Shown here: positions 166-23,837 of the stretch, piece by piece
Position numbering within the stretch: the first letter of the stretch is position 1
Layout of the letters: every line of letters starts with the position of its first letter
Virus record (IMG/VR): IMGVR_UViG_3300032277_000030
Span: 1 to 36,965 of that record
Source of the DNA: a virus
Lineage: Duplodnaviria; Caudoviricetes
Length of the DNA: 36,965 bases
Direction: 5' to 3' (one strand)
The notes under the pieces: model-generated
The model's input: only the letters and a program-made list of their open reading frames with translations
What the model was told of the DNA's origin: nothing
The model's database searches: none
Program-made: the position numbers and the translations under genes

Positions 166-3100
166 ATGGCCAATCCTTTTTTAGAAGATTTTTTAAAAGA
201 CCTCCAAGATATGGAACAAGAAAAAACATCTTTTGGTGGCACTGAGCAGGCATCTTTATTTTTACCAAGCCCTGAACAACCACAAGAAGAAAAGAATGTA
301 TTGTATGATATAATTGGCAGCTCTGCATGGGCGTTTGCTGATGAAGCTGCGTTTGGTGGACTCAGCTTAGGTGCATATGCATTAGATCAAGATGTATCTC
401 AGTTTGCACCACAAACATTGCCTGGGAAAATAGGTGCAGGTGTTGGTGCTTTAGGTGGCTTTGCATTAGGTGCTCCTTTAAAAGTAGGTAGTAAAATTCT
501 TACAACTGCAGCTAGGCCATTTTTGCAAAAAGCTGCTGCTGAGTTAGGTGAAGACATTGTAGTTAGCAGTGCTAAAACTATAGCTAAGAAAGCATCTAAA
601 GAAGCTGTTGATACAGGTTTAAGAAAAGAAATAGCAGATGATTTTACTAATCAGTATTTAAATTTATCTAATAGGTCTACATTTAATAAGGATATAGCTA
701 AAGACTTTGTGCTTAGGTCTAGCAAGTCAGTAGATGATTTAGCTGAGTCTTATGTTAAGTCTGGAAAGATGACAGCTGCTGAAGCTGATATAGCTAGGAA
801 TGTGTTTCAAAGAGACTTAACTAAGCGCCCTATACAAAACTTTAAAGATTTATGGGGTGCTCAAGGTCGTAACCCTTGGGTAGGCAATTTATTAGATGAA
901 GCGATTATGTTTACAGCTATTGATGCAATCAGGGAAGTTCCTGCAAGTATATCTCAAGAAAGACCTTACGACTTTATGATGCCTGTTATTGGTACTGTAG
1001 TTGGTGCAGGTTTTGGTGGAATTAAATTCTTAAATCCTGTAGGCAAGAGCTCAAACTTTAGAGTAGAAATGGCTGATGGTATTAGATCTGCATTTGGTAG
1101 AAATATATATGCAAATAAAAAGCCTAAAGAGCTAAAGAAACATGCTACATGGTTAGCTGGTCAAATGCAAGATAATGCTGATGAAATGCTTAAAACATCT
1201 AAGAGAGTTAATTTAAATGGTAAAGAGTATAAGTTAGATTTAATGATGCCTGATCAAGTATTTAGTGACTATGGTGATAAAATTGGTACAGCAGTATTAA
1301 GAAAAGGATTAGATCAGTACAGCAAGTCTTATGGTAAAGAATTATTAAAATGGTCTCTTAAAGAAGAATGGGGATCATTAACAGAGAATTGGTTTAGGAT
1401 GTTTGCTGGTGGTATGGTTATGAATGCACATGCATTATATCAAGTAGCAGTAAATGATGTTGAGTTATCAGCAGAAGATATGATACCTGGTATGCTTATT
1501 GGTGCATGGATGAATAGAAATGGTACACCTAGAGCTTTTGATTTAAATACAAGAACTAATAGAGTTAGAAAAAATCTACACATGCTTGGACATGATGTTA
1601 GAAACATGGTAGACATCCCTAGTTTTAGTCCCTATAATGCAGCGTATATGAACCCAATTAGTCAGAATGAAGCCTTACTTAAGGTTAGGAATAAAGCTGA
1701 AGAATTAGGCATAATAACGGACTCATATGAGCAATCTATAGCTAACATTGAAGACGGATCTACAAGTGTATTGTTTGAGCATCAATCAAGAGGCAATTAT
1801 GATGTATTTAATAGCTTTTATCATTTACTTGGAGGTCAAAAGAAGTTTATTAAAGGCCTAGATCAAATTAGCGTAGATGAAGCAAACTTATTGCAAAACT
1901 CTATTAAAGAGTTAAAATGGGATGCATTGAACAATAGATCTGTAGAAAATGCACAAGATTTATATCATGTAGTAGAAAGTATATCAGAAGGTGCTGCAGG
2001 TGTATTTGAAAAATCATTACTTAATACTTTAGTGGATATGAAGATAGATTTACCTGGATTGATTGCAGAGCTTGACCCTTCTATAGGCAGTGCAGGGTCT
2101 TTTCCAAAGAAATTTGGTATTCCCGAGGTAAGCCTAGATACAGGTTTGCCTACTTTATCTGAAATGGCAGAATCAGGAAGGCTTATATCTGGATTAGAAG
2201 GTGACGCTGCTATAAGAAGATTAAAAAATGTGGCATTAAAAGCTAATAGAATTATTGATGCATTAGAAACAACTAATAGAATTGAAAAAACAGACAAAGA
2301 ATTTAAGCTTACAAATAAAGATCAATTTGAAGCATTAAGCAATATAATTGATGGCTTTGAGTCAAAAGTTAATCAGTCTGTAGGTAGCAAAGAAGGCCTT
2401 GAATTTGACATATTGAAAAATATGGAAGATATGGAAACTGTAATGGTTGCTAATAGTGCAAAAACTTCTGCTAAAAATATCTCTACATTATTTGCACAGG
2501 GCTCTAAAAGCCATATTGAATTACAAACAGCATTAAAAAATGCAGGTATATTACATGGAGATAACCTAGTTGAGGGTGGATTAGTATCAATACCAGATTT
2601 AAGTTTACAGAGCATAGAAATTACTGGGGGCAGTGAAACTAAAATAGCTGAATCTAGAAGATCATTAGGTCAAGTATTAAGTATAATAAAAGCAAAAGCA
2701 CAATATACTAAAAGTGTTCCTGCTGAGCCTCTAAAGATAGATGTATCTCAAGTTGACAACCTTATGAGTTTCTTAGGCAAAACCGGCATGAAAACTAAAC
2801 CTTGGATTATGGATCAATGGAATGGTTATACATTAAGATATATAATGAATGAAAATATAGAAGGCTCAAATATAACTATGCAAGATATGAGTACTTTTAT
2901 GGATATTAGTTCTATAGAGGGATTAGATTTAGCTAAAGTTAGCCCTAAAGGTAGAGGCTTTGAAGCTAGAAGAATAGAAATGCCACCTTCTGATAATGAA
3001 GTACTTATAGCGCAAGTTGATCGATACAATACATTTATAGATAAGATAGTAAAAGATGGAAAAAGTGTTAAAGGGGGCTTAATATCTGAGGGAGACCCTC

Positions 3101-6100
3101 TTACTGTTGTTGGTCCTGATATGATGCATATAATAGACCAGAAGCTAGACTATTCTCATGCTGATGCGTTTACTTCTGCTAAGCAAGCTATTACAGATTT
3201 TACAAATTCAGTAAGTATAAATCAGCCAGCTTTTATAGAACAGATGAGAAGTTTCTCTAGCATGAATGCTGATTATGCTAAAAGGTTAGAAGGATGGTTA
3301 ATATCTTCTAAGGTTATAAGTAGAGAGAGGCCTGATGGATATATTAAATATAGGTTTAATGAGGACGGATTAACAGATGAAGTTATCGATTTATTAAAAG
3401 GCAAGATGAATTTATATGGAGTATCATATGACCATATAGACGCGCAGTATAAACAAAATAGAGAAGAGTATATGGAAATTATGGAAGAAACATATGCTCA
3501 GCCTCACGCAGATGGTAGCTTAACTCAAGATCAATTTTTTAATAAGTACTACGTAGATGAGGGAGGCAACTCTATACATCCTGATAAAATGAGCCAGGAT
3601 AATATATTAAGCCTAGTTAACCAGGTTAACCTTGACTTAGCAGCAAAAGGAATGGCTAAAAAGCTTAATGTAAGAGAATATGTAAGAGAAAACTTTAGAT
3701 TCCCAGTAAAAACAAATAAAGGAATAGAGTATAAGCTTGGCTCAGATTTAGATTTAAGAAGTGTAAAAAACAAAAATATGATTAGCGAAGCAATGGATCA
3801 TTTCTCTTCTATTATAAGCGCTAAAACTAATGCTACCGAAGGCCATTTAGTTATGTGGGATGGCGGAGCCTCTACTTTTAAAAAGATGCCAATGCAAAAA
3901 ACTAAGTTTACAGATGCTATGGAAAAGTATAACTTGCCTTTAATATTTATTAGTGGCAGTGGTGAAAATTTTGGTGGCTGGGGAACTAAAAGACAAAGGC
4001 GTAGAGTTAGTTTATTTGAAACTGATTCTAAATATTTAACTGATAAAGATAAGCAGATTATAAGAGCTAACAGATTAAACTTTGAAAAAGAGCTATCGGC
4101 TATTACAGATGTATATGGAAGAGTTTCTAAAGACCAATATGAAGAAGGCAGACTATCTTTATCTAGTACAGACAATCCTGGAGTAGATATATTTGTTATT
4201 GCAGACAAGATACAGCCTGTTGGTATTGGAAGGTCTAATTTACCATTATTAACAGAAGCATATGAAAGTTTATTTAAGAAGGTAAAAAGTAGCCTTGGTG
4301 ATAGTAAAGCAAAAGAGATGCAAGATAATATAGACTCTATGAAACGTTCCCCAAATATGAAAACAGGAGCTCATGAACAAGCATTAAGGCAGTTGTTATT
4401 TTCTGAGATTAGCATAGAGGGTAATGATTATTCTGGATTTGCTAGCCTAATGAATGATGTAGATTTTGGCGATAATGGCAACATAGGCAAGATATCTAAG
4501 CGCTTATCACTATTTCATACTCCTAATTTTAAAAAGTTAAATACTATTATAACTGAAGGTGCAGCAAGAAATTCTAATGATACTAGGATTATAGAAAAAT
4601 ACACTAAAAGATTAGATAATAAAGTTAGAGTTGCTATACTTGATGATGACAAGAATAATTCTAATTTTTCTATTAAGCAAAGACTTAAAAAGCAGTTTGA
4701 AGATAAGTATGGAGATAAAGAAGGAGCAACTAGATTTGATAATTTCTGGGCTAATGAGTTGCATGGTAGAAGTGATGAGACTAGATTAGACAGTGTAAGT
4801 TTCTTATCTAGGGATATGATGCGTTATTTTTCTTTAGGCACAGGTAGAGCTGCTGCAGATGAAACTCAGCTGTTTAAGCCTGTTATATCATCTACAGGAG
4901 ATGTTTTACTTTTAGGCAAAACTGTATTCGTTCATGACCCTGATCTAGAGTCTTTCTTTAAAACTCAAGGATTAGACATATTAACTACAGGATCAGCATC
5001 AAAGGTTGTTGGTGCAGGCTGGAATAAATTACAATCTGATCAACTGACAGACAGAAGTGCTGATATATCTAGCTCTATAAGACAGATTGATATGGATAAT
5101 ATAAGAATTAAGCAAGACAGGGTACATACGGAAGACACTGCAAAGCAATCGCAATCTGCATTTAACTATATGTCTAGTGCAGAAGCAGAAGTAATGTTCA
5201 ATGAAGGCTATGCTACTCAGTTAAATAATAACTTAGAAGCTATGAATCAAGTTTTTAATAATCCTGACATGAGAAAGATGTTTTTTGATCAAACAGCATT
5301 TGAAGACCAGTCTATACAATCTATGTTTGAAGGCGGAGAAGGTGGAGCTGTGCTTGGAAGTGCTAAGTTTGCAGCCTCTAACGGCATGGACCCTTTAGAG
5401 CTGGGAGAAAGGCTATTTGCAAGTCAGCTATACAGAAAGTTTGTTGACCCTATTGTGAATAAAAAGGCAGAAATTAACGGAAGTAGGTATGGTGGTAAAG
5501 CAGTATTAATGCAGTCTTTAACAGGGGATACTAATCTTAGAGCTACTATAGTAGAAGATGGAACACTTACACAATACGGTCAAGTTGTGCTGCCTGAATA
5601 TGAAATAGATTCTAAGCTTTCTGCTATAAAAGAGCAAACAGGTATGAGCATTAAAGTGATCAGAACTTCAGATCAAAAAGTATTAGATATTTCAGAGTTG
5701 CCTTTAATAAGAGGCTCAAAAAATGTTGGTACTAAAAATCCTTTAAGCAAAGAAGAGTTATCTGAAATGACTTTAGGGCACTTGCATAAATTAGTTAATA
5801 CAGGTGGTGAATATGAAGTTGCTATTGTTACTAATAGATACCCTCGCACAAGGCCAAATGACATGGCTGTTTTAGGCTTAAAAGGCTTTTTAACTAAAGA
5901 CCATGGTAATGCTATGATTGTCAATGAAATGGACGTATTAAACATATTTGAAGGTGATTATGATGTAGATAAAAATGATTACTATTTTATGCAATCAGAT
6001 CAAATGTTTAAGCATATAGAAAATAGAATGCCTTCATGGGCTCAAGGAATTGATGTTGATCAGTTTGCAGGTAATATAGAAAACTTATCTTTATCTGGAA

Positions 6101-8562
6101 CAGCAAGAACTAGTAATATGGCATGGAGTCAACAATTAGGTAATGCTAGTACTCTTAAAAAAGGTATTGGAGTAACACAAAAACTACACAGAACTTTAAA
6201 CTGGATAAGAGATTTAGCCGAACAGAAGGTAATTAATAAAGATACAGGAGAAACTGAATACGTTTTACTCCAAAAAGAAGATGGTAGCCGTATAGTTATG
6301 GACTATGACAATAAAGATTGGTGGCATAGGGCTGTTTTAGAAACTCAAGCTATCATTGATGCAGGTACATCTACTAGCTCTAATCTTATTAATGAAAACA
6401 TGAGAGATTATAGAGATGATTTCTTATTTCCATTAAGAGAAGAAAGTCATTCTTATTTAGAAAAGTTATCTTCTGATACAAATAGAATAGGTTTCTTAAG
6501 AGATGTTGCTAAGCAAACTCCTGGAACAAAAAGAATTAGATTGTTTAGAAAGCTAAATGCAGACGGAACGGAAACTAGTGATTTATCTGGAGTTGATAAA
6601 GATATAATAAAAACATTACTTGACCAATATTCTAAGTTTATTAGTATTGGCTCTACTATATTTGATAAAACAGGGAATGGCAAAAAACCAGGATACCATG
6701 ATGTTATGGATATATCTGAAGAATATTTTACCTTTATGCAAAACTATGGAAAAGGTGGAGATATGAGTAGAAGGATGTTTTATAAATTGTTAGGAACTCA
6801 TGGTAATAATGCTGAGTTTGCACAATACTTTGGTAAAGATAAAACAGACGCCTACAATAAGGACGATAAAGAAATTCCTTCTTATCCTATTAATACTAGA
6901 AGTCCTTTTCCTGAAGCTATGCTTAATAAAGCTGATAAAATTGCTAGAGGGAAGCATGGCAATGTATTAGATAGAATGATGAATAAAGTTAGAGCAAGAG
7001 ATCCTTTAGGGATAAATGAATACAAAGCATTTAATCAAGCTGATTTAATATTTATGGATGAAGCTAGTAATAGGTTTATGGAAAATCCAGAACATAAGCA
7101 GCAATTTAACGAAGACGTATTAGCATATACTCAAGATGTAAATAAAAAGATTAGCCAGATAAGATACTTAAAAAGAAGGTTTGGGTTTATTAATAATATG
7201 AAAGTTAGTGCTGGTAGAAAGCAAGAGCTTAAAAATGACTTAAACGAAACAATAAGAAGTATAGAAGCTACAATAGCTGATGCTCTTCCTGATAAGTATA
7301 AAAAAACATTTAAAGGTGAAGATCTAAAAGCAGGGTATATAAAGATTGTTGACTTGCAAAGTAATAAAGAAATGCAAAATGCTGCTGTTCAATTATATGC
7401 AATGGATGCGATTGCACGAATTAATGACTCTACTCCTGCAATGAAATCTAAGATTCAAGACCTACACCATCTTGAGAGAAGAATGTTTGGGGATATGAAT
7501 GATCTTTCTCATACTCAAGAATATGGAGATGCTACAGTAGTTAGTGACAGAATTAATCAGTATTTAAAGTCTGCTAAGCTAGATTACAATAACATAGAAT
7601 CAGTAATTAGCGATATGATACGATCTGGTGTAAGAGAGCATGGACTGCACTTTTTATGGCATTATGCTAATCCCAAAAAGAATGCTTCTGCGGTAGGTGT
7701 ATTTAACAATCAAGTAATCCCTGTACCTTATTCTGGAAATGGAAGAATGAAAAGGGTGATAAGACACTTAGCTGACATGGCGCAAAACCCCCAAGCAGGA
7801 TCAGATCCTGATGCTTTAAATGCGTTTAGAGCACTAGGCTCTGTTGTAGGACATTATAGAAATTACTTTAATAAAAATTGGGAATACTTATCTCAAGACC
7901 CTATTATTAATGATCAGATATCTTATCTTAGTAAGCCTTCTCAAAACAGTCCTGACGGCTTAACATATGAGCACTTAAAGTTTCCTAGCTTTAGTAGTAG
8001 ATTTGAGTCAGGATTAGATGGATTTAAAGCATATAAATGGAAAAAACATGCAGATGTAGATGACCCATTTAAAACGCAAGTAGATATGCCTGTCATGTCT
8101 TTTTATAAGCAATTTTTCGAATTACACGGAAAGGGTGCAGAGTTTGATCAGTATGTAAATCAAAAATCTGTATTACATAAAGAACTTGAATCTAATAGGA
8201 TTATTGACCCTATGAGATATCTAGCTATGGTTTCTAATCTAGATACAGAATTGCATAATTTTGCTAAGAATAAATATGCAGGAGCTGTAGTTGATGAGGG
8301 AGGACAGGCTAAAGTATGGAGTATGGATCAGATAAAAGATAAAGATGCTATGAGAGGAAATATAATATATGCATTAATGGGTGGTAATAAACACTTTAAA
8401 ACACTTACATTAGCACCTGAGTCTAAGCGTACAAAACGTGACTTATCTTCTGCAGCTGAGTTTGGAAAGTTTGGACAAACAGTTATAGAAAAGGTTCCAG
8501 AAGGTACTATGGATAATTTAAAAAGTAGCTTTATGCATTGCACTGTAAAGGGAAATAAATAA
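166..8562 (+). CDS. Giant virion protein with a two-barrel (DPBB) RNA polymerase catalytic core; probable virion-packaged RNA polymerase
   Basis: 2798 aa. NRYPR (aa 1890-1894) is followed about 40 aa later by GDYDVDK (DxDxD, aa 1931-1935), as in RxP...DFDID/DFDGD polymerases. Upstream LDSVSFLS...FKP...GKT...SASK resembles second-barrel motifs. Gly-rich hydrophobic N-terminal segments are typical of ejected proteins. Confidence 0.8.
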   Translation: MANPFLEDFLKDLQDMEQEKTSFGGTEQASLFLPSPEQPQEEKNVLYDIIGSSAWAFADEAAFGGLSLGAYALDQDVSQFAPQTLPGKIGAGVGALGGFALGAPLKVGSKILTTAARPFLQKAAAELGEDIVVSSAKTIAKKASKEAVDTGLRKEIADDFTNQYLNLSNRSTFNKDIAKDFVLRSSKSVDDLAESYVKSGKMTAAEADIARNVFQRDLTKRPIQNFKDLWGAQGRNPWVGNLLDEAIMFTAIDAIREVPASISQERPYDFMMPVIGTVVGAGFGGIKFLNPVGKSSNFRVEMADGIRSAFGRNIYANKKPKELKKHATWLAGQMQDNADEMLKTSKRVNLNGKEYKLDLMMPDQVFSDYGDKIGTAVLRKGLDQYSKSYGKELLKWSLKEEWGSLTENWFRMFAGGMVMNAHALYQVAVNDVELSAEDMIPGMLIGAWMNRNGTPRAFDLNTRTNRVRKNLHMLGHDVRNMVDIPSFSPYNAAYMNPISQNEALLKVRNKAEELGIITDSYEQSIANIEDGSTSVLFEHQSRGNYDVFNSFYHLLGGQKKFIKGLDQISVDEANLLQNSIKELKWDALNNRSVENAQDLYHVVESISEGAAGVFEKSLLNTLVDMKIDLPGLIAELDPSIGSAGSFPKKFGIPEVSLDTGLPTLSEMAESGRLISGLEGDAAIRRLKNVALKANRIIDALETTNRIEKTDKEFKLTNKDQFEALSNIIDGFESKVNQSVGSKEGLEFDILKNMEDMETVMVANSAKTSAKNISTLFAQGSKSHIELQTALKNAGILHGDNLVEGGLVSIPDLSLQSIEITGGSETKIAESRRSLGQVLSIIKAKAQYTKSVPAEPLKIDVSQVDNLMSFLGKTGMKTKPWIMDQWNGYTLRYIMNENIEGSNITMQDMSTFMDISSIEGLDLAKVSPKGRGFEARRIEMPPSDNEVLIAQVDRYNTFIDKIVKDGKSVKGGLISEGDPLTVVGPDMMHIIDQKLDYSHADAFTSAKQAITDFTNSVSINQPAFIEQMRSFSSMNADYAKRLEGWLISSKVISRERPDGYIKYRFNEDGLTDEVIDLLKGKMNLYGVSYDHIDAQYKQNREEYMEIMEETYAQPHADGSLTQDQFFNKYYVDEGGNSIHPDKMSQDNILSLVNQVNLDLAAKGMAKKLNVREYVRENFRFPVKTNKGIEYKLGSDLDLRSVKNKNMISEAMDHFSSIISAKTNATEGHLVMWDGGASTFKKMPMQKTKFTDAMEKYNLPLIFISGSGENFGGWGTKRQRRRVSLFETDSKYLTDKDKQIIRANRLNFEKELSAITDVYGRVSKDQYEEGRLSLSSTDNPGVDIFVIADKIQPVGIGRSNLPLLTEAYESLFKKVKSSLGDSKAKEMQDNIDSMKRSPNMKTGAHEQALRQLLFSEISIEGNDYSGFASLMNDVDFGDNGNIGKISKRLSLFHTPNFKKLNTIITEGAARNSNDTRIIEKYTKRLDNKVRVAILDDDKNNSNFSIKQRLKKQFEDKYGDKEGATRFDNFWANELHGRSDETRLDSVSFLSRDMMRYFSLGTGRAAADETQLFKPVISSTGDVLLLGKTVFVHDPDLESFFKTQGLDILTTGSASKVVGAGWNKLQSDQLTDRSADISSSIRQIDMDNIRIKQDRVHTEDTAKQSQSAFNYMSSAEAEVMFNEGYATQLNNNLEAMNQVFNNPDMRKMFFDQTAFEDQSIQSMFEGGEGGAVLGSAKFAASNGMDPLELGERLFASQLYRKFVDPIVNKKAEINGSRYGGKAVLMQSLTGDTNLRATIVEDGTLTQYGQVVLPEYEIDSKLSAIKEQTGMSIKVIRTSDQKVLDISELPLIRGSKNVGTKNPLSKEELSEMTLGHLHKLVNTGGEYEVAIVTNRYPRTRPNDMAVLGLKGFLTKDHGNAMIVNEMDVLNIFEGDYDVDKNDYYFMQSDQMFKHIENRMPSWAQGIDVDQFAGNIENLSLSGTARTSNMAWSQQLGNASTLKKGIGVTQKLHRTLNWIRDLAEQKVINKDTGETEYVLLQKEDGSRIVMDYDNKDWWHRAVLETQAIIDAGTSTSSNLINENMRDYRDDFLFPLREESHSYLEKLSSDTNRIGFLRDVAKQTPGTKRIRLFRKLNADGTETSDLSGVDKDIIKTLLDQYSKFISIGSTIFDKTGNGKKPGYHDVMDISEEYFTFMQNYGKGGDMSRRMFYKLLGTHGNNAEFAQYFGKDKTDAYNKDDKEIPSYPINTRSPFPEAMLNKADKIARGKHGNVLDRMMNKVRARDPLGINEYKAFNQADLIFMDEASNRFMENPEHKQQFNEDVLAYTQDVNKKISQIRYLKRRFGFINNMKVSAGRKQELKNDLNETIRSIEATIADALPDKYKKTFKGEDLKAGYIKIVDLQSNKEMQNAAVQLYAMDAIARINDSTPAMKSKIQDLHHLERRMFGDMNDLSHTQEYGDATVVSDRINQYLKSAKLDYNNIESVISDMIRSGVREHGLHFLWHYANPKKNASAVGVFNNQVIPVPYSGNGRMKRVIRHLADMAQNPQAGSDPDALNAFRALGSVVGHYRNYFNKNWEYLSQDPIINDQISYLSKPSQNSPDGLTYEHLKFPSFSSRFESGLDGFKAYKWKKHADVDDPFKTQVDMPVMSFYKQFFELHGKGAEFDQYVNQKSVLHKELESNRIIDPMRYLAMVSNLDTELHNFAKNKYAGAVVDEGGQAKVWSMDQIKDKDAMRGNIIYALMGGNKHFKTLTLAPESKRTKRDLSSAAEFGKFGQTVIEKVPEGTMDNLKSSFMHCTVKGNK

Positions 8563-11294
8563 TGAGAGCTAATTGCGATTTTTCAGAACATGTATCACTA
8601 GTATTTGAAGCATGGGATAAATTTAAAGGTAATAAAAAAGTAAAAGAATACTTTAAAGATCCGGATGAAGCATTTGTAAGTTTGTTGCAAAATGAATTTA
8701 AAATGAGCCCTGAAAACCTAATGTATCAAAATACTGTAAGTAAAGGTAGGATGAGAGGATTTCAAAAAAGACTAGACACTCTTGTAAGGAATGTAGAAAA
8801 AGGTAAGGTTTCTAGTAAAATGGCTGAAATGTTTTATACGCCTAGCTCTTTTGCAAATACAGACCCTACAATAAGCAAGTTATTAAATGATTACATACAT
8901 ACATCTCATACATATCAGGGTACACAAAAAAGAAATACAGACTTTCAAGCAAAGATTAAAAGAGAAATAATTAAAGAAGCTTCTGCCAGAGGTTTAATGT
9001 CTAATGGTTTAGTAGAGTTTGGTAAAAAGATTACATTTAGAACTGCAGAAGACAAAATACGTCGCAATGAAGAAACAATGAATAAGCTTGCAGTTGAAGC
9101 TCAAAATGGAAATCAAGATTCAGAAGCTAAGTTTAGAGAGTTGGTAAAAAAAGAAGATCGACTAATAGCAGATACAGAGGCAGGAGTTTATGCTGAACTT
9201 ATAGGATACATAGAAGGCCCAGAAGGTGTATCTAGGCTAGTAGATGATAGGTTGCTAAAAGAAGATAAAAAATTATATACAAAAAATAGAAGAACAGGGA
9301 ATGATAAATATCTTTTAAAGCGTGAAGACTTTACAAAACTCTTAGATAAAAATGGCAAGCCTATATCTAGTAGAATGGCTAATGCGCTTAATGATTATAC
9401 AATGCTTACAGAAGATTTATATTGGGATCTTAAAAATGGTGTAGACTCTTATGTAGAAACTATTATAGAGGGGCAAAGAGGCAAGACTAAAGATCAAATT
9501 AATAGCATGAGAGAAAGACTTTATGAAAAACTAATGCCTAGCCCACAAAAAGGTTTTTATCCTCACTTTAGAAGAGGATTGAATATTGACTTTATGGATG
9601 GATTAATGGGCAAGTTAGAAGATTTAGTGTTAGCATCTAACAAGCATTTTAATACAGAAATGTCAATGCAGTCAGCAATAGATAACGTTAATGGGTTTAT
9701 AACAGGACACGCTAGAGCTAGAGAAACAGATATATCTCCTAATGATTATTCATACAATTTTAATAGAGTTATTAGTTCGTATTCATCTAATGTAGCCAGG
9801 TTTAACTATATAAATAGAATAAACTACAATACTAAAAAAACAATGACGCAGCTAGAAAATCTATATAAAGATGGTAATTATGAAGGTGGATATGGTGAGT
9901 CTGTTATGGAGTTTATACAAGATTTACACAAGTCTGCTACTGGCTATGATCAAATTAAAAATCCAGCTATAAATAATATGCTAAGAACTGTGTTGGGCTT
10001 TGAGTTTATAAGTAAGATTGGGTTTAATCCTAGATCCGCTATTAGAAATATGTCTCAGTCTTTAATGAATTTAGTTGAGTGGAGTCCTATACAGATAAAA
10101 GAATCTAATGCATTTTTTAAAGATGCAGCAAGAATGGCAGATGTAAATGAGCAAATGGAATCTATTGGTATTTTATTTAAAGATGATGCTCCAGAACTAC
10201 AAGAGTCTATGGGAAGAACTCCAGGAGGCTTTTCTTCTGTTAGATACAACGATCAGACAGGTAAGCTAGAGCATATACCTATTACAACATTAGAAAAAAC
10301 TTCAGGTATCGCTAATTCTATTGCTGGCACTGCTGGTAAAATGACAGGAGCTATAGAAAACTTTAACAGGAAGACTACATTTAAAATAGCGTATGCACAA
10401 ATGTACAAGTCTCTTGACAACAATAACTTCTATGAAATGCAAAAAGATTTATATTTAAAGAAGCTTAAAAATCCTGAAAATGCTAGTGGGTCAAAAATTG
10501 ATGCTGCTGTAGAGTCTGCTAAAACAGATGCCGCTAAAAAATACGCTATTAACATGACTGTAGGAATGCATTTTGATTACAATGCTTTTTCTAAGTCTAA
10601 AGTATTAAGAACTAAAGTAGGCAGTGTAGTAGGCCAGTTTCAACACTATTCATTTAAGTTTTTTGAAAAGAACGCAGAAGTACTTAGAAATGCAAAAAAT
10701 GATATCATGGTTGGTGATGTTAACGGTAATGATGCATGGAAGCTTTATAGATTAGGTATAGTATACTTTATGGCTCCAGCTATTGCAAGTGCCATAACAG
10801 GTATTGATATAGGTAATATAGTAGAGCATGATCCTGCATCTAAATTAAAAAAACTAGCATTAGGGTTTACTGGCGATCCTAGCTCAGAAGAATATAAAAG
10901 AGCATTCTTTAATAAAGGCCCTGTAATGGGTACTATAGGTGCTCCTGCTTTAAGTACACTATTAAACTTTGGCATGATGACTGAGCTTATCAATATGGAT
11001 GAAGATAATATTCTATCCTTAATGGCTGGTTATGATGATGCATATGCTAATGAGCTAAGTAATCAATATAAAAAAGATAAGCTTTATGCTGTATCTAAGT
11101 TGTTAAATACTGGATTAAATAGAATTGCATATAGACATTTACCTCAGTTAGCTAAAGGTAATATTGGTTGGGTTGCTCAGAGTGAGCTTGGCTTATATCC
11201 TACTGCTGAAGCCAAAAAGAAACAAAATTTAGTTAAAGGCCTAAGCCCAGAAATGTTTAAAGCATTAGAAGCGTTAGAAAAGAAGGGGCGTTAA
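8562..11294 (+). CDS. Large internal virion/ejection protein
   Basis: 910 aa, translationally coupled (TAATG) to the RNAP gene. Helical composition. Motifs GFYPH, GFNPRSAIRNMSQ, ENFNR and HFDY...QFQHY resemble podovirus internal/polyvalent virion proteins. Confidence 0.6.
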   Translation: MRANCDFSEHVSLVFEAWDKFKGNKKVKEYFKDPDEAFVSLLQNEFKMSPENLMYQNTVSKGRMRGFQKRLDTLVRNVEKGKVSSKMAEMFYTPSSFANTDPTISKLLNDYIHTSHTYQGTQKRNTDFQAKIKREIIKEASARGLMSNGLVEFGKKITFRTAEDKIRRNEETMNKLAVEAQNGNQDSEAKFRELVKKEDRLIADTEAGVYAELIGYIEGPEGVSRLVDDRLLKEDKKLYTKNRRTGNDKYLLKREDFTKLLDKNGKPISSRMANALNDYTMLTEDLYWDLKNGVDSYVETIIEGQRGKTKDQINSMRERLYEKLMPSPQKGFYPHFRRGLNIDFMDGLMGKLEDLVLASNKHFNTEMSMQSAIDNVNGFITGHARARETDISPNDYSYNFNRVISSYSSNVARFNYINRINYNTKKTMTQLENLYKDGNYEGGYGESVMEFIQDLHKSATGYDQIKNPAINNMLRTVLGFEFISKIGFNPRSAIRNMSQSLMNLVEWSPIQIKESNAFFKDAARMADVNEQMESIGILFKDDAPELQESMGRTPGGFSSVRYNDQTGKLEHIPITTLEKTSGIANSIAGTAGKMTGAIENFNRKTTFKIAYAQMYKSLDNNNFYEMQKDLYLKKLKNPENASGSKIDAAVESAKTDAAKKYAINMTVGMHFDYNAFSKSKVLRTKVGSVVGQFQHYSFKFFEKNAEVLRNAKNDIMVGDVNGNDAWKLYRLGIVYFMAPAIASAITGIDIGNIVEHDPASKLKKLALGFTGDPSSEEYKRAFFNKGPVMGTIGAPALSTLLNFGMMTELINMDEDNILSLMAGYDDAYANELSNQYKKDKLYAVSKLLNTGLNRIAYRHLPQLAKGNIGWVAQSELGLYPTAEAKKKQNLVKGLSPEMFKALEALEKKGR

Positions 11295-16193: not shown

Positions 16194-16223
16194 TAAAAAA
16201 GGGCCAGAGTTAACCAGCCCTTT
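16194..16223 (-). terminator. Rho-independent terminator after the E1 gene
   Basis: Minus strand GGGCUGG-UUAACU-CUGGCCC-UUUUUU. Confidence 0.75.
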
Positions 16224-16264
16224 CTATTACAAATAAGGATTTGCGTTCGAAATGCGTATGTAAT

Positions 16265-16924
16265 TTACGCTTTCATAGGGGACTTTTCCAATAACATTGT
16301 TGGGAAATTGAAAGAGAATGATCTGTTAAATGGTTGTCCTGTAACGAGTTTCCGTATTGTATTTGCAATCATGCTACCTGATAGATTAGAGCAATAACTT
16401 GTTGCCTTTGCGTTGCAAGGCTCTGGGCTACCACTTTCATCTGAATACCAGGTCTTCTTGTACTTACTGACAGTAGGTTTATCAAACACATATTGTTGAT
16501 AATGTTCAGCTCCCATACGACCATCAATTATATATAATGGTTTCACCCCTGGTATGCCAAACAATGCCTCTACTGCTTGTAATCTTGACGACATAGAATC
16601 AAACCCAAGTATAGCAATGTCATTCTCTCCTTGTGGATAAAACTCTGAGAATCTCTCATTGTATGTATTCACTTTGAAAACACCTAATTCTATTAGATGA
16701 TTATGCAATGCTTCTACTTTAGGTTTGTCTACATCGTTAAAGGTATATTGAGATACACCTATATTTACTTCTTCTACTTTATCCATATCATATAGACAGA
16801 ATTGATCAGCACCCATTCTAGCTATTTGTAAGGCTGCAGAGCTACCTATAGCCCCGCAACCCAATATGTGAAAAGTAAAATCTTCTAAGTTATTCACTAA
16901 CTCTGATGATCTTGTATTTATCAT
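16265..16924 (-). CDS. E1-like ubiquitin-activating enzyme (ThiF/MoeB superfamily)
   Basis: GCGAIGS nucleotide loop, YDMDKVEEVN...Q...KVEAL, GFDSMSSR, IDGRMG and candidate catalytic Cys170 (EPCNAK). The ThiF/MoeB CxxC Zn pairs are absent. Confidence 0.9.
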   Translation of the reverse strand: MINTRSSELVNNLEDFTFHILGCGAIGSSAALQIARMGADQFCLYDMDKVEEVNIGVSQYTFNDVDKPKVEALHNHLIELGVFKVNTYNERFSEFYPQGENDIAILGFDSMSSRLQAVEALFGIPGVKPLYIIDGRMGAEHYQQYVFDKPTVSKYKKTWYSDESGSPEPCNAKATSYCSNLSGSMIANTIRKLVTGQPFNRSFSFNFPTMLLEKSPMKA

Positions 16925-17859
16925 TAGTCTACTCCATATGATGCGTTATAAGATTTATAATCTATCCAATCGTCCCATTCAGCTTCAACTTGCGCTTCAT
17001 CTGTAAGGTCAATTGCTATATACTCATGAGGTGTTGCTAACATGACTTGAGATTCTAATACAGGCTCAGTTACTAACTCTATTCTATAAATACTATCATA
17101 AGTATTCTTTAGTAAGTGGTTAATGTCTTTAGCCATAGTTATCCATCCTTCATATGTCAGTCTACCATCACAGTACTTTTTATTCATCTCATCTACCATG
17201 CTATAAGCATAGATGTAATCAGGAGAATCACCAGATAACTCTTGATTATACTTTGGACAACCAGCTTTGGTATCCTTGGTATCCATTAGAGTCATCTGAT
17301 TCGACTTTCCCGCAGTATATTTCCCTTTATTATAGGAAGTATATTGAGGGATAATACGAGAACATTTGTCAGCAACCTCATCTTGTATTCTTTGAGGAAC
17401 TTTCTTTTCCTTAGTCATAATGACAAGATCCACATCTTCATGTACCTCAAATGGTTTCCATACAGACACCCTTAACTTATATTCTTCATCAAGATTTACA
17501 ACTAAAGCAAAGCTAAAGTCACCATCTGAATATTCTTTAATAGCAGTTAGGTCTGTACCCGACCAGAAAGCCTTCATTGTGTGATGACTATGCCACCATA
17601 CAAAGCGAAAGTTTTTCTTTTTGAGTTTAGTTCCCACTTTAGTATAATATAGCGCTAGATCATCTTTATCTAACACACAATTACCTGCACTTATTTGTTG
17701 CTTTAAGATAACTGGATCTTTCAGTTCCCAATCACCATCCTCATCTTCAATAGCTACTAACATACCACCTATCTCAGATTTCTCAGTACTATATGCTTCT
17801 TGAGCATAATTCTGGATTTTGTTCCAGTCTTTCTCACTTATATAAAAGTCTTGATCCAT
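16924..17859 (-). CDS. JAB/JAMM (MPN+) metallopeptidase with C-terminal extension
   Basis: EIGG...WWHSHHTMKAFWSGTD matches E-x(n)-HSH-x7-S-x2-D. TAATG coupling to E1. Confidence 0.9.
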   Translation of the reverse strand: MDQDFYISEKDWNKIQNYAQEAYSTEKSEIGGMLVAIEDEDGDWELKDPVILKQQISAGNCVLDKDDLALYYTKVGTKLKKKNFRFVWWHSHHTMKAFWSGTDLTAIKEYSDGDFSFALVVNLDEEYKLRVSVWKPFEVHEDVDLVIMTKEKKVPQRIQDEVADKCSRIIPQYTSYNKGKYTAGKSNQMTLMDTKDTKAGCPKYNQELSGDSPDYIYAYSMVDEMNKKYCDGRLTYEGWITMAKDINHLLKNTYDSIYRIELVTEPVLESQVMLATPHEYIAIDLTDEAQVEAEWDDWIDYKSYNASYGVD

Positions 17860-17860
17860 C

Positions 17861-19183
17861 TTATCTCCTTATGTCTACTGTGTTTACGCCTTGATACATT
17901 TCTAATATCTCAGCTTCTGTTAACCTATTTAACTCTTGCCCCAATGAAGTTTCACCATCTTGATCAGCTAGTTCACCACCATCATCTATTTCCTCTGTAG
18001 GTAGATATAAATCTCTATATGAAGGACAACTGTTGCGAAGAACACAATTATATCTTTCACAATAAGATGTTTCCATATCTGGTTGCTCTTGATTTAATAC
18101 ATTTGCATACCTACAATCAGTCATTCTACTTGTATTACTCATGTTTCCGGTTGATTCCCATACTTCTGTCTGCATCTCAGGCCATATACCATGAAACATT
18201 CTAGTATAGCTATTTAGTGGACCTGTAGTTCCAACATTAAAGTTCTTTGTCCAGCCATTTAGATATGTAAATAAGGCTAATATATCACCTTGCCAAGCAG
18301 CTTGTCTTATGTCTGTATCAAAACTACCAAAGCATACATTGCTAAATCTAGATCCTGTATTTTGGCCTTCAGCAAATGTAACTTCAAGCTGATCTCTGTT
18401 CCACTGTTCTTGAGATATATATGGAAATAATGTCTCAGGTTCTTGTGGGTGAAATATAGCACCATTCCAAGGGTTAGTATGACCACCGCCAGAATATCCT
18501 TCTGATATACTACGAGCGCCTCTAATCCTATTCATAATATTCTTAACTAAATCTACAGAAATCATTATATCTAGATCACCCATTGGTACTTCAACAGTCT
18601 CTCCACCTATATTTATATTAGTATTTACTCCTTCAATATAAACATGAAATGAAACTGCATGATTTGTACTAGATCGAGCTCTATGTACTCTATCGTTTAC
18701 ATGCAAGCCATGATATACAGATATATTCATATGTGGATATAACTGCATTGCACTTGACATAGTAGACTCTATGTTATCTTTATACTCATTAAGTACACGG
18801 TTAACTTCATCTGTATTGTCTTGAAATACTATTCCGCCATTCCTCAAGAAATATAACTTTTGATCTATCTCATCTACCTTGGTTAAGAATTGATCTATAG
18901 CCCATCTGGCATTATTGATTTGATTCTTATATGTAGACACTTTATTCTTTTGTCTATTAACATTGGATATCTTACCTGCCTCTTCTGTTAACTTCTTATA
19001 GAATCCAGGCTGCCATCTAAATGTTGGTGTACATCTAAAGTCAGTATTCCATCTGAAATTTAAATTTTGTATTAAATTCAAGACTTCTTCCTGTGGTCCT
19101 AATGCTATTCTTTCTATAATATCATCAATATTATTCATTCCGCTAAGAAAGTTGTTTGTTGCGTTAAGCGTTGCTGAGCTCAT
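17861..19183 (-). CDS. E2-like (UBC-fold) conjugating enzyme with N-terminal coiled coil and C-terminal Cys4 cluster
   Basis: FHP...LFPYIS...SNVCFGSF followed by helices and W..NFN resembles the prokaryotic E2 HP...xClG signature. GAGGAGG RBS before MSSAT. Adjacent to JAB and E1. Confidence 0.65.
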   Translation of the reverse strand: MSSATLNATNNFLSGMNNIDDIIERIALGPQEEVLNLIQNLNFRWNTDFRCTPTFRWQPGFYKKLTEEAGKISNVNRQKNKVSTYKNQINNARWAIDQFLTKVDEIDQKLYFLRNGGIVFQDNTDEVNRVLNEYKDNIESTMSSAMQLYPHMNISVYHGLHVNDRVHRARSSTNHAVSFHVYIEGVNTNINIGGETVEVPMGDLDIMISVDLVKNIMNRIRGARSISEGYSGGGHTNPWNGAIFHPQEPETLFPYISQEQWNRDQLEVTFAEGQNTGSRFSNVCFGSFDTDIRQAAWQGDILALFTYLNGWTKNFNVGTTGPLNSYTRMFHGIWPEMQTEVWESTGNMSNTSRMTDCRYANVLNQEQPDMETSYCERYNCVLRNSCPSYRDLYLPTEEIDDGGELADQDGETSLGQELNRLTEAEILEMYQGVNTVDIRR

Positions 19184-19364
19184 ACTTTGCCTCCTCACAA
19201 TTTGGGCATTCTTTCTTTTCTAATCCATAATGAGGAAAGTCATAATAATAACTATATCCTCCTTTTTTATACATTTCAACTAATACAGTTGACTTATGCC
19301 ATACGGCTCTGCATGTATTGCAGCTTTTTAGTGGATCTGCATGTCCATCCTTATGTTTTTTCAT
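19164..19364 (-). CDS. Small Zn-finger protein
   Basis: CNTC...CPNC, AAGGAG RBS, overlaps the E2 start. Confidence 0.7.
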   Translation of the reverse strand: MKKHKDGHADPLKSCNTCRAVWHKSTVLVEMYKKGGYSYYYDFPHYGLEKKECPNCEEAKYELSNA

Positions 19365-19560
19365 TTGTCTCCTTTAAATAATATGAAAACATTGTTCCGC
19401 AATCTGGATCAAAGTCTTCCAACTCTTGAAATATTTCTTCTAATCCATCTTCCAAGAAGAACTTATCATAATATCCTACTCTAAAATATAACTCATTAGA
19501 GCCAAGACATTCTTTCCATGTAAACTCAGTAATCCCTTTGTCTTGGAATATCTGTGTCAT
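19351..19560 (-). CDS. Hypothetical acidic protein (start uncertain)
   Basis: Fills the gap between neighbouring genes. Start placed at MTQIF to minimise overlap. Confidence 0.5.
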   Translation of the reverse strand: MTQIFQDKGITEFTWKECLGSNELYFRVGYYDKFFLEDGLEEIFQELEDFDPDCGTMFSYYLKETNEKT

Positions 19561-19864
19561 TAATATCTGTACGTACTTGCGTAGCAAATTGCCAGGCATG
19601 TGTTTTCTTTCCATACTTGCCTTCCCGTAACTCATCGGTTTTAGTTAAGTTACCACGTTTAGTTAAAGTAGATATAGCTCTACGTATACTAGTAATTGGC
19701 CAATGTCTATCACATACTTCACACATATGATGTATATCATCTGGTGTAAATAATTGATTTGGATTGTCAATAAAGAATTGTAATATCAATTCATCTTGAT
19801 TTGCCGTTTGTGTCCAAGACTCTCTTAAGTCTTCACCACTTTCATTATTTGTATTGTAATACAT
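19526..19864 (-). CDS. Winged helix-turn-helix DNA-binding protein
   Basis: ILQFF...FTPDDI...TSIRRAISTLTKRGNL followed by a beta-wing. AAGGAG RBS. Confidence 0.75.
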   Translation of the reverse strand: MYYNTNNESGEDLRESWTQTANQDELILQFFIDNPNQLFTPDDIHHMCEVCDRHWPITSIRRAISTLTKRGNLTKTDELREGKYGKKTHAWQFATQVRTDINDTDIPRQRDY

Positions 19865-20034
19865 TAAATGTCTCCTTTTGCTTTTTTATACTCTTTACAC
19901 ATATGTCTTTTGCCACTCTTATTATACAATAACCATCCATATTCAGTAGATGCCCAATGTACTTTATTTGATTTGCAAAACTTACACTTTGCTACTGTCT
20001 TACTTTCTTTGAACTTTTTGCTTCTTGTATACAT
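19864..20034 (-). CDS. 56-aa Zn-finger protein (not in the ORF track)
   Basis: MYTRSKKFKESKTVAKCKFCKSNKVHWASTEYGWLLYNKSGKRHMCKEYKKAKGDI; CxxC...HxC; TAATG coupling to the wHTH gene. Confidence 0.75.
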   Translation of the reverse strand: MYTRSKKFKESKTVAKCKFCKSNKVHWASTEYGWLLYNKSGKRHMCKEYKKAKGDI

Positions 20035-20047
20035 ATTTATCCAATCA

Positions 20048-20243
20048 AATTTAGTCCCCTACTCTCTGTCAATTCGCAATCAACAGATAGCAAATTAAAA
20101 TAATGCAAGGTGCGCTAGCTGTCTTAGTAGGATTTCGTTCATGGCAAGGAATCTTTAAGATTCAATCAGTACCATGCAAACACCATACCTTGCATTAATT
20201 TAGTCCCCTACTCTCTGTTAATTCGTGGTCAACAGATAGCAAA
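20048..20243. repeat. Two 47-nt imperfect direct repeats (20048-20094, 20197-20243), each with an internal hairpin
   Basis: aatttagtcccctactctctgtYaattcgYRRtcaacagatagcaaa, 43/47 identical. Confidence 0.9.
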
Positions 20244-20445
20244 AATCACTTGATATTAACTAGTAGGGGAATAGGAATGCACTCTGGAACCGAGCTTAAG
20301 AAGGGTTACTTAAGGTTGATTCTCAGCTTTATGCCAGAGTGCGGTAAGTTTACCATAGCAACAAATTATACAGTATGTCTCATAGACTGAGTCGGTACAC
20401 ATCTCACCTGTTATGTTTAAGTCTAAGACCAGGCAGCTATGCTAT
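20048..20445 (-). ncRNA. Candidate structured non-coding RNA cluster
   Basis: Interval without a credible ORF, containing nested stems taatgcaaggt/accttgcatta, gcactctgg/ccagagtgc and catagc/gctatg. G-U pairs favour the minus strand. Confidence 0.45.
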
Positions 20446-20491
20446 TCTACACTATCAGTAGATTTGGCTCACTATATCTTAGAAACTATGG

Positions 20492-21352
20492 TTAAAATAT
20501 ATATCGTATCTTTTGCCAAGGAAGAATACTGTTATGCAATCTTTTAAATGCAGTAACATACTCATTCTTTAGCCAATACTTATATCTTATATTTTTGCCT
20601 CCATAAATAGAGGTCTTTTCTTGTTGATTATGTGGTGTCCATAGTAAATCTTCTCCCATAACGTTGTTTTCTACATTATAATCATGTAATTTTTCATTAT
20701 GTGTAAGAAATATACACTCTGCCATCACATCTTCCTTAATATCATCTCTAATATTGTCATTTACCAAATTAAATAGCTCAGTATATCCTGCTTTTGAGTT
20801 TTTATAGACAACAATTGGTGAATAATTAAGGTGAATATCATAACCAGCATCATAAAATCTATTAACAGCTTGTATTCTGTCAATAATCTTACTAGTGTTT
20901 GGCTCTAGCACACTAGATATTTCTTGTGGCATTAAGCTAAAACGTATTCGTATCTTTTTATCAGCATTATATGTCAATATTTTATCATTAACATATTTTG
21001 TAGCTGCTGTACCCATCAGTCTATCATGATCTCTAAAGAAATCAAAGATATATTCCCAGTCATAGAATCTAGTATGCAATATAAAATCCTCATTGCAACT
21101 AAAATCATAGGTCCAATAGTCATTACTAGTCTGATTAGGTGGTTTAGGCCATAACAAATCATTAGCATGTGCATCAATAGATGTTAATATATCATCAATA
21201 TTCTCTGCTACTGATAATCCATAAGGTACATTACGTCGCATATAGCAATATGTACACTTATATAAACAGCCATAACCAAAGCTAGGAGTAATATAGTCAC
21301 TACTCCTGCCTGACTTTCTTATTTTAAAGGTTTTTCTTTGTATGTATTTCAT
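20492..21352 (-). CDS. splB: Spore photoproduct lyase-like radical SAM enzyme
   Basis: GCLYKCTYCY (CxxxCxxC), DFSCNED (equivalent of the SPL H-donor Cys), ATKY, RIRFSLMP...LEPNTS...RIQA, SPI and a C-terminal RY...IRYIF, all SPL-family features. Confidence 0.85.
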   Translation of the reverse strand: MKYIQRKTFKIRKSGRSSDYITPSFGYGCLYKCTYCYMRRNVPYGLSVAENIDDILTSIDAHANDLLWPKPPNQTSNDYWTYDFSCNEDFILHTRFYDWEYIFDFFRDHDRLMGTAATKYVNDKILTYNADKKIRIRFSLMPQEISSVLEPNTSKIIDRIQAVNRFYDAGYDIHLNYSPIVVYKNSKAGYTELFNLVNDNIRDDIKEDVMAECIFLTHNEKLHDYNVENNVMGEDLLWTPHNQQEKTSIYGGKNIRYKYWLKNEYVTAFKRLHNSILPWQKIRYIF

Positions 21353-21409
21353 AGCAATCCTTTATATAAATTTTGGGTAGTTTAACCCCTACCCCGGGCG
21401 AGACAATAG

Positions 21410-21793
21410 TTATACTATTGATTCCTGTAGCCTGTATACACTAAGTATATTTTCAAGCTTAGTACAAAGAGCATCTTCAAATTCTACTCCAGTATGAGTT
21501 GATCCTATGTTTTCTTTAACATAGCTATTCAACACTGTGTATAGGACTGATAACTCTTCTTTATCAAGGCTAACATCAACAGTTAGTTCTGTGCCACCAG
21601 TTTTATCATTGTTTACAAACGCAACGATATCACCTTCTTGTAATTGATATGAATTGTTTACATTCACACCACCTACAGCTGCAGAAGCATTGGATGATAT
21701 ACCCATTTCTTCACGCAGTTCACACATAGTTTCAGATCGTGTTTCTTGTGTTACGAATCCACCACCTGATAGTACTTTGATTGTTCTAGACAT
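21410..21793 (-). CDS. Ubiquitin-like (beta-grasp, ThiS/MoaD/SAMP-like) protein with internal Gly-Gly and a 60-aa C-terminal extension
   Basis: True start MSRTIKV after TAAGGAG. T..EL...V.G......YQLQEGDIVAF...KTGG (aa 64-67) is the standard beta-grasp C-terminal pattern. Confidence 0.8.
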   Translation of the reverse strand: MSRTIKVLSGGGFVTQETRSETMCELREEMGISSNASAAVGGVNVNNSYQLQEGDIVAFVNNDKTGGTELTVDVSLDKEELSVLYTVLNSYVKENIGSTHTGVEFEDALCTKLENILSVYRLQESIV

Positions 21794-23403: not shown

Positions 23404-23765
23404 TGTGTCTCCTTTGTTGTTTAATAGTATCCCAGTGTGTAACCGCCTGCATAGCATATATTGGCTAGATTATGCATCTAGTTACTATATGTGCGCGTCT
23501 ATCAGGTTCTCTTTATCTTATGTTTCTTGTCCACTGGGAATAATAGAAAAGCATGTCCTAATCTCCCCCTCTCAGACCTTTGGGTTGTAAAGATGTACAA
23601 GGTATAAGGGCGCGACCCCTATTTCGATCACTGCTTTTTTCAGCTTAACATTGGGATAATCACCACATTGCTGTTGAGTTCACTTATTCGGTACCTTTGT
23701 CAGACATGCTACGATATCCCTGCAAATGGTCTTGCCATCAATGGTCTTGGGATATACTTTTATTG

Positions 23766-23837
23766 TTGCGGGAGAGGGATTCGAACCCCCAATCTCTTGG
23801 TTATGAGCCAAGTGAGTTGCCATTTCTCCATCCCGCT
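23766..23837 (-). tRNA. tRNA-Met(CAT), initiator-like
   Basis: AGCGGGA-TG-GAGAAATGGCAACTC-A-CTTGG-CTCATAA-CCAAG-AGATT-GGGGG-TTCGAAT-CCCTC-TCCCGCA-A. Unpaired 1:72 and A11:U24. CCA is not encoded. Confidence 0.93.

Follow-up and report, generated by a model that had tools for sequence, protein, structure and literature searches.

The locus at positions 16,265 to 21,793 of the virus record IMGVR_UViG_3300032277_000030 raises the question of whether a phage can own a ubiquitin-like conjugation pathway and, if so, which proteins such a pathway would modify. The window, i.e. the whole stretch of DNA analysed (36,965 nt), belongs to a single virus record of an uncultured tailed phage (CheckV completeness 68%). 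An earlier note had described in it a complete conjugation system consisting of a ubiquitin-like protein (Ubl), a conjugating enzyme (E2), a JAB metallopeptidase and an activating enzyme (E1). The four genes form a real, conserved and phage-owned module that is likely a Ubl conjugation system. The conserved gene order, the invariant cysteines, the KxGG motif, the likely UBC fold and the absence of sulfur-relay genes from 21 related genomes uphold the earlier description, but the word 'complete' exceeds the evidence, as the E2 fold is matched only modestly (Z at most 5.5) and no E3 was seen. The features of the locus are the following (aa, amino acids; ORF, open reading frame):

21593..21793, minus strand: Ubl domain, 67 aa, ThiS/MoaD-like, ending in Lys-Thr-Gly-Gly; predicted mature tag (motif and weak profile matches)
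21410..21592, minus strand: 60-aa tail after the Gly-Gly, polymorphic, predicted to be removed by JAB
17861..19183, minus strand: E2-like protein, 440 aa (core model, structural matches and family conservation)
16924..17859, minus strand: JAB/JAMM metallopeptidase, 311 aa (E29, H90, H92, S100, D103)
16265..16924, minus strand: minimal single-domain E1 of ThiF fold, 219 aa (Pfam ThiF, R5, GCGAIG, C170)
16196..16225, minus strand: terminator-like hairpin and U-run after E1 (z -2.8)
19164..19364, minus strand: 66-aa zinc-ribbon-like ORF (CxxC..CxxC) overlapping the E2 start (sequence)

Conservation of the four-gene cassette

All four ORFs are intact and co-oriented on the minus strand, and the abutting or overlapping of E2, JAB and E1 described earlier was confirmed, with a gap of 1 nt between E2 and JAB and an overlap of 1 nt between JAB and E1. 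A purine-rich Shine-Dalgarno-like stretch precedes the ATG of each gene. The terminator proposed at the end of the cassette stands in part: a 12-bp hairpin running into U6 is present after E1 (0/200 shuffles), but it was missing from the output of the consensus terminator scan. The cassette sits in the replication arm, on the strand opposite to the structural genes. Downstream of it follow an ERF or AAA_24-family protein, a 175-aa acidic-tailed protein, which we take to be similar to single-stranded DNA-binding (SSB) proteins, and a primase-helicase.

The survey of synteny in related phages that the earlier note had proposed was based on an E1 scan of IMG/VR, which gave 226 stretches, 80 of them kept as E1-anchored loci. 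All four genes were present in 44 of these 80 viral loci, in every case (44/44) in the order Ubl-E2-JAB-E1, and the other 36 loci had less than 5 kb of sequence upstream of E1. Of the Ubl-anchored loci, 35 have 6 kb or more of sequence downstream, and all 35 include E2, JAB and E1, with the order Ubl-E2-JAB-E1 in 34; the two sets overlap and both include near-identical contigs. Where 3.5-6 kb was available downstream of Ubl, nine of the 12 loci held E2, JAB and E1, and one (L114) showed none of them. The distance between Ubl and E2 was at most 256 nt in 32 of the 44 complete E1-anchored loci; in the window Ubl lies 2.2 kb upstream of E2, with an SPL-like radical-SAM gene and small ORFs between them. 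In the Ubl-anchored locus L132, E2 precedes Ubl, and in one clade a 3.3-kb insertion parts E2 from JAB (L045/L049, 5748-9063).

All four cassette genes are under purifying selection. The ratios of nonsynonymous to synonymous polymorphism (pN/pS) against four near relatives were 0.10-0.15 for E1, 0.16-0.29 for JAB, 0.13-0.32 for Ubl and 0.33-0.46 for E2. The E2-like gene is the fastest-diverging part of the cassette, which would suit a component in contact with a host target.

The cassette is accessory in this lineage: it is kept or lost as a unit and is dispensable for replication. The primase scan gave 525 relatives, 80 of which were kept. When at least 6.5 kb was available upstream of the primase, the whole cassette was present in 19 of 22 loci and no part of it in three; with 3-6.5 kb upstream, E1 was seen in 11 of 18, the share of carriers being possibly raised because the primase alignment was built from cassette-bearing loci. 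The close relative G427, a genome of 53.5 kb that is 100% complete, lacks both E1 and Ubl; its primase is 79% identical. Three loci (L231, L241 and L242) have kept ERF, the 175-aa gene and the primase, with the cassette absent. They carry a block of three genes (L241:5717-8174, L242:4681-7071, L231:1-1741), which in L241 and L242 takes the place of the cassette and consists of a DUF932 gene, a gene for a protein of 130 aa bearing GHxH and HEEH motifs, and one for an unnamed protein of 330-340 aa. The block is possibly an alternative host-interaction module; no paper linking DUF932 to anti-defence was found in the literature. As the cassette is kept or lost as a unit and is not needed for replication, a host-dependent role would be favoured, and the patchy presence among close relatives fits a role in host conflict.

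Activating enzyme, peptidase, modifier and E2-like protein

The E1/ThiF enzyme with a candidate catalytic Cys170 (codon 16415-16417), as the earlier note had it, was supported by the Pfam family ThiF (E 1.2e-15). Among 67 distinct full-length relatives R5, GCGAIG, C170 and C178 were invariant (67/67). The protein consists of a single ThiF domain in which C23, C170 and C178 are the only conserved cysteines, and there are no CxxC zinc pairs. C170, not C178, is retained in the distant homologues crAss001 gp76 and Fpv3 gp52, and C170 is therefore the better catalytic candidate; by comparison with ThiF, MoeB and UBA5, it presumably lies in the crossover loop. The only PDB sequence matches were UBA5 and MccB (E 1e-4 to 9e-4, N-terminal part only). 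The best NCBIfam match was ThiF, with 58.6 bits against a cut-off of 159, and the PADLOC CBASS E1-E2 models matched weakly, over residues 3-103 only.

Also the JAMM peptidase was confirmed. The active site E..HxH-x7-S-x2-D (E29, H90, H92, S100 and D103) is kept in 60 of 60 distinct full-length relatives. The Pfam match to Prok-JAB (E 2.2e-4) was slightly below the cut-off (21.5 vs 25 bits), and the PADLOC JAB model matched with E 1.6e-6. A search of 50,697 phage records with the JAB protein gave no match.

The Ubl ORF is 127 aa long, with KTGG at residues 64-67 and 60 residues after it. KxGG was found in 39 of 39 distinct Ubls, of which 17 end there and 22 have tails of 1-60 aa. Weak matches to ThiS or MoaD were obtained in the Pfam, NCBIfam, PDB profile and ESM atlas searches, including Pfam ThiS (E 0.029), MoaD in the profile search (E 0.096-0.23) and a viral ThiS-family cluster in the atlas (score 0.93, 209 of 256 features shared). 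The beta-grasp protein with KTGG of the earlier note is thus ThiS/MoaD-like by these weak matches, but its KTGG is not terminal. Because the motif is internal and followed by 60 residues, the Ubl of the window would have to be trimmed before use. Among the loci examined, the window and a single near-identical contig were alone in having the 60-aa tail, the nearest other relatives having tails of 1-3 aa. It was read through without a break in the sequencing runs X6 and X10; one contig of X10, a seawater run, skips 174 nt of the tail, a weak observation as the short side measures 28 nt. As a stand-alone gene the tail had no homologue among proteins of 33-105 aa or in the examined loci. As part of the wider idea that phages run a Ubl-based counter-defence, the Ubl of the window could conceivably be made as a cleavable fusion that releases the tail as a 60-aa passenger, a suggestion that we make tentatively.

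The E2-like protein comprises an N-terminal helical part (residues 1-120), a probable UBC core (121-345) that includes Cys284 (codon 18332-18334), a cysteine cluster (C357, C375, C380 and C386) and an acidic tail. Its family is new: it has no name in Pfam, NCBIfam, PHROGs or PADLOC, and its members (430-690 aa, 369 clusters at 50% identity) came here almost only from viral records. Library and profile searches gave no sequence match to any E2 family. In an alignment of 215 family members C284 was conserved in 214, W311 in 209, P322 in 213 and N324 in 201; also G286 and G332 are conserved, and no conserved His follows C284. Of the 161 family proteins examined that have 400 aa or more, 107 show the pattern C-x(3-5)-C-x(4-6)-C. 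The E2-type HP...NVCFG motif named earlier was right as to the cysteine, but its H245-P246 is not the conserved pair, P246 being Pro in 70 of 215 only. The conserved pair is position 253 with P254 (His in 126/215, Phe in the window; Pro in 208/215). The family pattern, (H/F)PYI followed by a variable loop, C284 and then W311 and P-x-N, is reminiscent of the HPN..C..W..PLN pattern of E2 enzymes.

The core was folded alone, because for the whole 440-aa model Foldseek gave no significant match and matches to the N-terminal helices took up the VIA list (best Z 6.5). The predicted core model (pLDDT 85.7) very probably has a UBC fold. With a caution level of Z 8 in VIA-align, its four top rows were all E2 enzymes (Z 5.1-5.5, root-mean-square deviation (rmsd) 3.6-4.2, 123-129 residues aligned). 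UBC, UEV or RWD domains made up altogether 44 of the 50 best rows, 33 by their titles (E2, UEV or RWD), one by a published description and 10 that we take to be such domains; six rows were other domains. The one with a published description is the E2 part of Cap2, an E2-type domain (PMC12355090). Row 42 was BilB (8tyz_C; Z 3.9, rmsd 4.0, 100 residues aligned), and UFC1 was also among the structural matches. The fold search of the ORFs proposed in the earlier note thus speaks for a UBC fold through VIA, but not through Foldseek against the PDB. With Foldseek E values of 2e-3 to 5e-3, crAss-like proteins of comparable length came next among the structural matches of the core. Two other assignments of the core were rejected: TetR, from two PDB profile-search matches with E 0.5, and Gad2 (PF26128), a weak look-alike with an atlas score of 0.92 and only 133-137 of 256 features shared.

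Relation to known systems

The earlier note had compared the four genes to the signature of the bacterial Bil system. The gene set and the order Ubl-E2-JAB-E1 are indeed shared (PMC10557695). Also the conserved Gly with a variable tail (0-60 aa in the cassette Ubls) resembles Bil, in which BilC trims the tails; no E3 is seen in either, and in both the E2 cysteine is preceded by a long variable loop. For the loop of BilB, E3-free choice of target has been proposed (PMC10557695). Membership did not stand. Bil is host-encoded and anti-phage, whereas the cassette is phage-encoded, in a genome with terminase, portal and capsid genes. The type II E1 of Bil is a multidomain protein with IAD, AAD, a CYS domain and four zinc cysteines (PMC10557695), whereas the cassette E1 is a single domain of 219 aa without IAD, CYS domain or zinc pairs. 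The Bil E2 has a His 13 residues after its Cys, while the cassette E2 lacks the CEHH histidines and has extra domains. The PADLOC Bil models matched neither the cassette E2 nor the Ubl. As E1 architecture, E2 motif and genomic owner all differ, the cassette is not a member of Bil, although it would be Bil-like in its working.

In the UBA5-UFC1-UFM1 pathway the E1, a minimal homodimeric enzyme, is likewise small and has its Cys in the region of the crossover loop (PMC12355090), but the cassette E1 lacks the C-terminal extension that binds UFM1 and UFC1, there is no E3, and the owner is a prokaryotic virus. The PRTRC or type 6d operons also have separate genes for Ubl, JAB, E1 and E2 on mobile DNA (PMC1779556), but the scores were far below the cut-offs (TIGR03736 23.6 vs 144.75 bits, PRTRC_A 13.5 vs 101.8 bits) and no Prok-E2 family, Prok-E2_D included, matched any of 39 E2-like members, so that the cassette does not belong to them. 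Bub consists of E1, E2, peptidase and Ubl as well; it has, however, no catalytic Cys and forms Tyr/Ser oxyesters (PMC11601596), in contrast to the C170 (67/67) and C284 (214/215) of the cassette. The lambdoid TAPI (Ubl) and TAPK (JAB) also pair a phage beta-grasp protein with a JAB peptidase (PMC1779556), but they lie in the tail genes without E1 or E2. In type II CBASS, Cap2 is an E2-E1 fusion acting on the CD-NTase, whereas the E1 and E2 of the cassette are separate and accompanied by a small Ubl; library scans named no nucleotidyltransferase among the window ORFs. A locus of a Bacteroidia metagenome-assembled genome (MAG; L084:6145-10228) in which nucleotidyltransferase-like, E2-E1-like, JAB-like and second nucleotidyltransferase-like genes were recognised by eye was rejected as a relative, being CBASS-like and unrelated.

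The E1 search of the 50,697 phage records gave 75 matches, mainly from Flavobacterium and crAss-like phages and many of them annotated as thiamine synthesis. The cultured gut phage crAss001 (gp79-gp76, L081:3241-7651) and the Flavobacterium phage Fpv3 (gp55-gp52, L082:3619-7630), likewise cultured, carry a candidate Ubl-E2-JAB-E1 cluster in the same order, annotated as hypothetical proteins, metalloprotease and 'thiamine biosynthesis ThiF'. Their E1 is homologous over 185 columns (hhalign 99.6%) with the same Cys, and a Prok-JAB gene lies directly upstream of it. Upstream of JAB there are a gene of 420-444 aa with HSH..C and a candidate Ubl with Lys-Ser-Gly and a long tail; these two show no sequence similarity to the window family, and they are taken for E2 and Ubl solely by their position and motifs. 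In the literature no phage-encoded cascade of E1, E2, JAB and Ubl was found described, a point on which supplements of the crAss papers may bear. The preprint 10.64898/2026.03.05.709809 names a single gut-phage family, matched to UBA5, as a possible homolog in phages of the ubiquitination proteins of bacteria and mentions no cassette, and a term search of the main text of PMC7886860, on crAss-like phages, gave no hits.

Function of the module

That the module conjugates proteins at all is probable. We lean, though slightly, to the explanation that it is a phage-owned accessory Ubl conjugation module attaching a small tag to host proteins during infection. JAB would cut after Gly67 and free the 67-aa Ubl. 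The E1, likely a homodimer like UBA5 and ThiF, would adenylate Gly67 and form a thioester on Cys170, from which the Ubl would be transferred to Cys284 of E2. As no E3 was seen, E2 itself would choose the target, by the variable loop before Cys284 and by its additional N-terminal and Cys-rich regions. The tag would then be placed on a lysine of a host protein that probably limits phage DNA replication or recombination, and would disable this protein; JAB may also reverse the tag. The earlier note had suggested host defence or transcription proteins as possible targets.

Several results weigh against this explanation. A phage target would agree equally well with the constant position of the cassette next to the annealing, SSB-like and primase genes. 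The pairwise similarities of the cassette genes track those of the primase (Spearman 0.59-0.79), so that the cassette is mostly inherited vertically and not swapped freely. The window E2-like protein has Phe at position 253 where the family has His. The best Z of the core model, 5.5, exceeds that of the best unrelated row (4.4) by about 1 and lies below 8. Foldseek against the PDB gave no significant match for the full model (TSG101 UEV, E 0.43) and for the core nothing under E 0.2. With hhalign the 215-row core reached 17.9 against Prok-E2_D, 10.2 against Prok-E2_B and 15.5 against crAss gp78, the shuffled maxima being 16.5, 16.0 and 19.4, respectively, and the comparison profiles shallow (4-8 rows). 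Furthermore, the Ubl is ThiS/MoaD-like while BilA is closer to ubiquitin (PMC10557695).

The last of these points leads to a ThiS/MoaD/URM1-like sulfur carrier, in which the Ubl would be made a thiocarboxylate by host sulfur enzymes and the large protein would not be a conjugating enzyme. This role would agree with the ThiS/MoaD-likeness of the Ubl, with ThiF as the best NCBIfam match of E1, with the two invariant Cys of E1 and with an E2 fold that is not statistically firm. However, rhodanese (PF00581), PP-loop ATPase (PF01171) and cysteine desulfurase (PF00266) were each found in 0 of 21 related records, 19 of which are at least 90% complete, with the same searches positive in 13-14 of 14 controls; host enzymes could still serve. 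The absence of these families supports the conjugation reading of the earlier note. Nor did a Pfam scan of 120 of the 198 listed ORFs of four complete relatives name any sulfur enzyme; it passed over mostly genes of the cassette, of replication and of the head that had been covered by the scan of the window, together with likely shadow ORFs and six ORFs of more than 1,300 aa. The E2-like partner with its invariant Cys in a likely UBC fold is obligatory, whereas ThiF/MoeB pathways work without E2 (PMC10557695), and we hold the sulfur carrier to be improbable.

A true conjugation cascade could also be aimed at the replication and recombination proteins of the phage itself, as a SUMO-like switch on the annealing protein, the presumably SSB-like protein or the primase-helicase. 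The genes downstream of the cassette agree with this, and so does the same-order cluster of crAss001 and Fpv3, which is likewise found among Sak4, primase and uracil-DNA glycosylase genes. As the three loci described above keep ERF, the 175-aa gene and the primase without the cassette, a target of this kind seems rather unlikely. A Bil-like weapon against co-infecting phages, tagging a virion or replication protein of the competitor, would be in line with the shared gene set and order (PMC10557695) and with the tagging of a phage tail fibre by Bil (10.1101/2023.09.04.556158). It is, however, hardly probable in view of the position in the replication arm, of the fact that 185,579 prokaryote genomes gave just one full-length relative of E1 (on a MAG contig of 3.9 kb with the cassette only), and of the absence of any integrase named by library scans among the 37 ORFs of the window or 120 ORFs of four relatives, by which a prophage stage is not indicated. 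The least probable of the explanations is a decoy or eraser that jams a host Ubl or CBASS pathway, in which JAB would remove the tags of the host while its E1 and E2 are occupied by the phage Ubl. The invariant active site of JAB and the weak matches of E1 and JAB to the PADLOC CBASS E1-E2 and JAB models would suit it, but a decoy would not require its own E1 and E2, and the four genes stay or disappear together.

The ubiquitination systems shown in bacteria, namely Bil, CBASS Cap2 and Bub, stand on the side of the host. A cascade on the phage side would turn the direction of this conflict round and give phages a post-translational weapon. It is conceivable, though somewhat doubtful, that the phage Ubl pathway is a widespread counter-defence in which a minimal E1 and an undescribed multidomain E2, acting as its own E3, tag host proteins, with cassettes from marine 50-kb phages to crAss001. 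A 219-aa E1 with a separate E2 would amount to a very small thioester relay and could help to trace the way from ThiF/ThiS sulfur chemistry to protein conjugation, and phage annotations as 'ThiF/thiamine' may be wrong. The question is testable, as there are natural relatives with and without the genes and a same-order cluster in the cultured crAss001.

Genome setting and neighbouring elements

The plus strand of the window includes terminase, P22-like portal and SU10 capsid genes, and the minus strand ERF, primase-helicase and RusA-like nuclease genes. Near-complete relatives of the phage measure 46-58 kb. In cultured phages the terminase had matches of about 25% identity, and for the primase there were partial-length matches to Bacillus, Moorella and Thermus phages alone. 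The contig L083, from a Nisaea MAG, was not accepted as an indication of the host, because it is 3.9 kb long and holds only the cassette. Short metatranscriptome contigs (two runs of one study) were identical to E2, E1 and JAB and none fell on Ubl; as DNA carry-over is possible, they were not counted as evidence. A sigma-70 promoter scan of the window gave 50 sites, with 51 expected.

The 66-aa zinc-ribbon-like ORF is not an obligatory part of the cassette: it had relatives in 19 of 81 loci, in some of them away from E2. The SPL-family radical-SAM gene (20492-21352, minus strand; TIGR03886 293 bits, below its cut-off) had relatives in five of 81 loci, at differing places. Between this gene and the small ORFs there is a non-coding stretch of 400 nt with a 47-nt direct repeat (20048-20094 and 20197-20243; 91% identical, 149 nt apart) that contains a hairpin, matches nothing in Rfam and is present as single copies in close relatives. 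Two large plus-strand proteins, of 2,798 aa (166-8562) and 910 aa (8562-11294), were without a confident family and without the DxDGD polymerase motif. The sequencing runs matching the window are labelled as marine, seawater or microbial mat. A tRNA-Met (CAT) gene is located at 23765-23837 on the minus strand.

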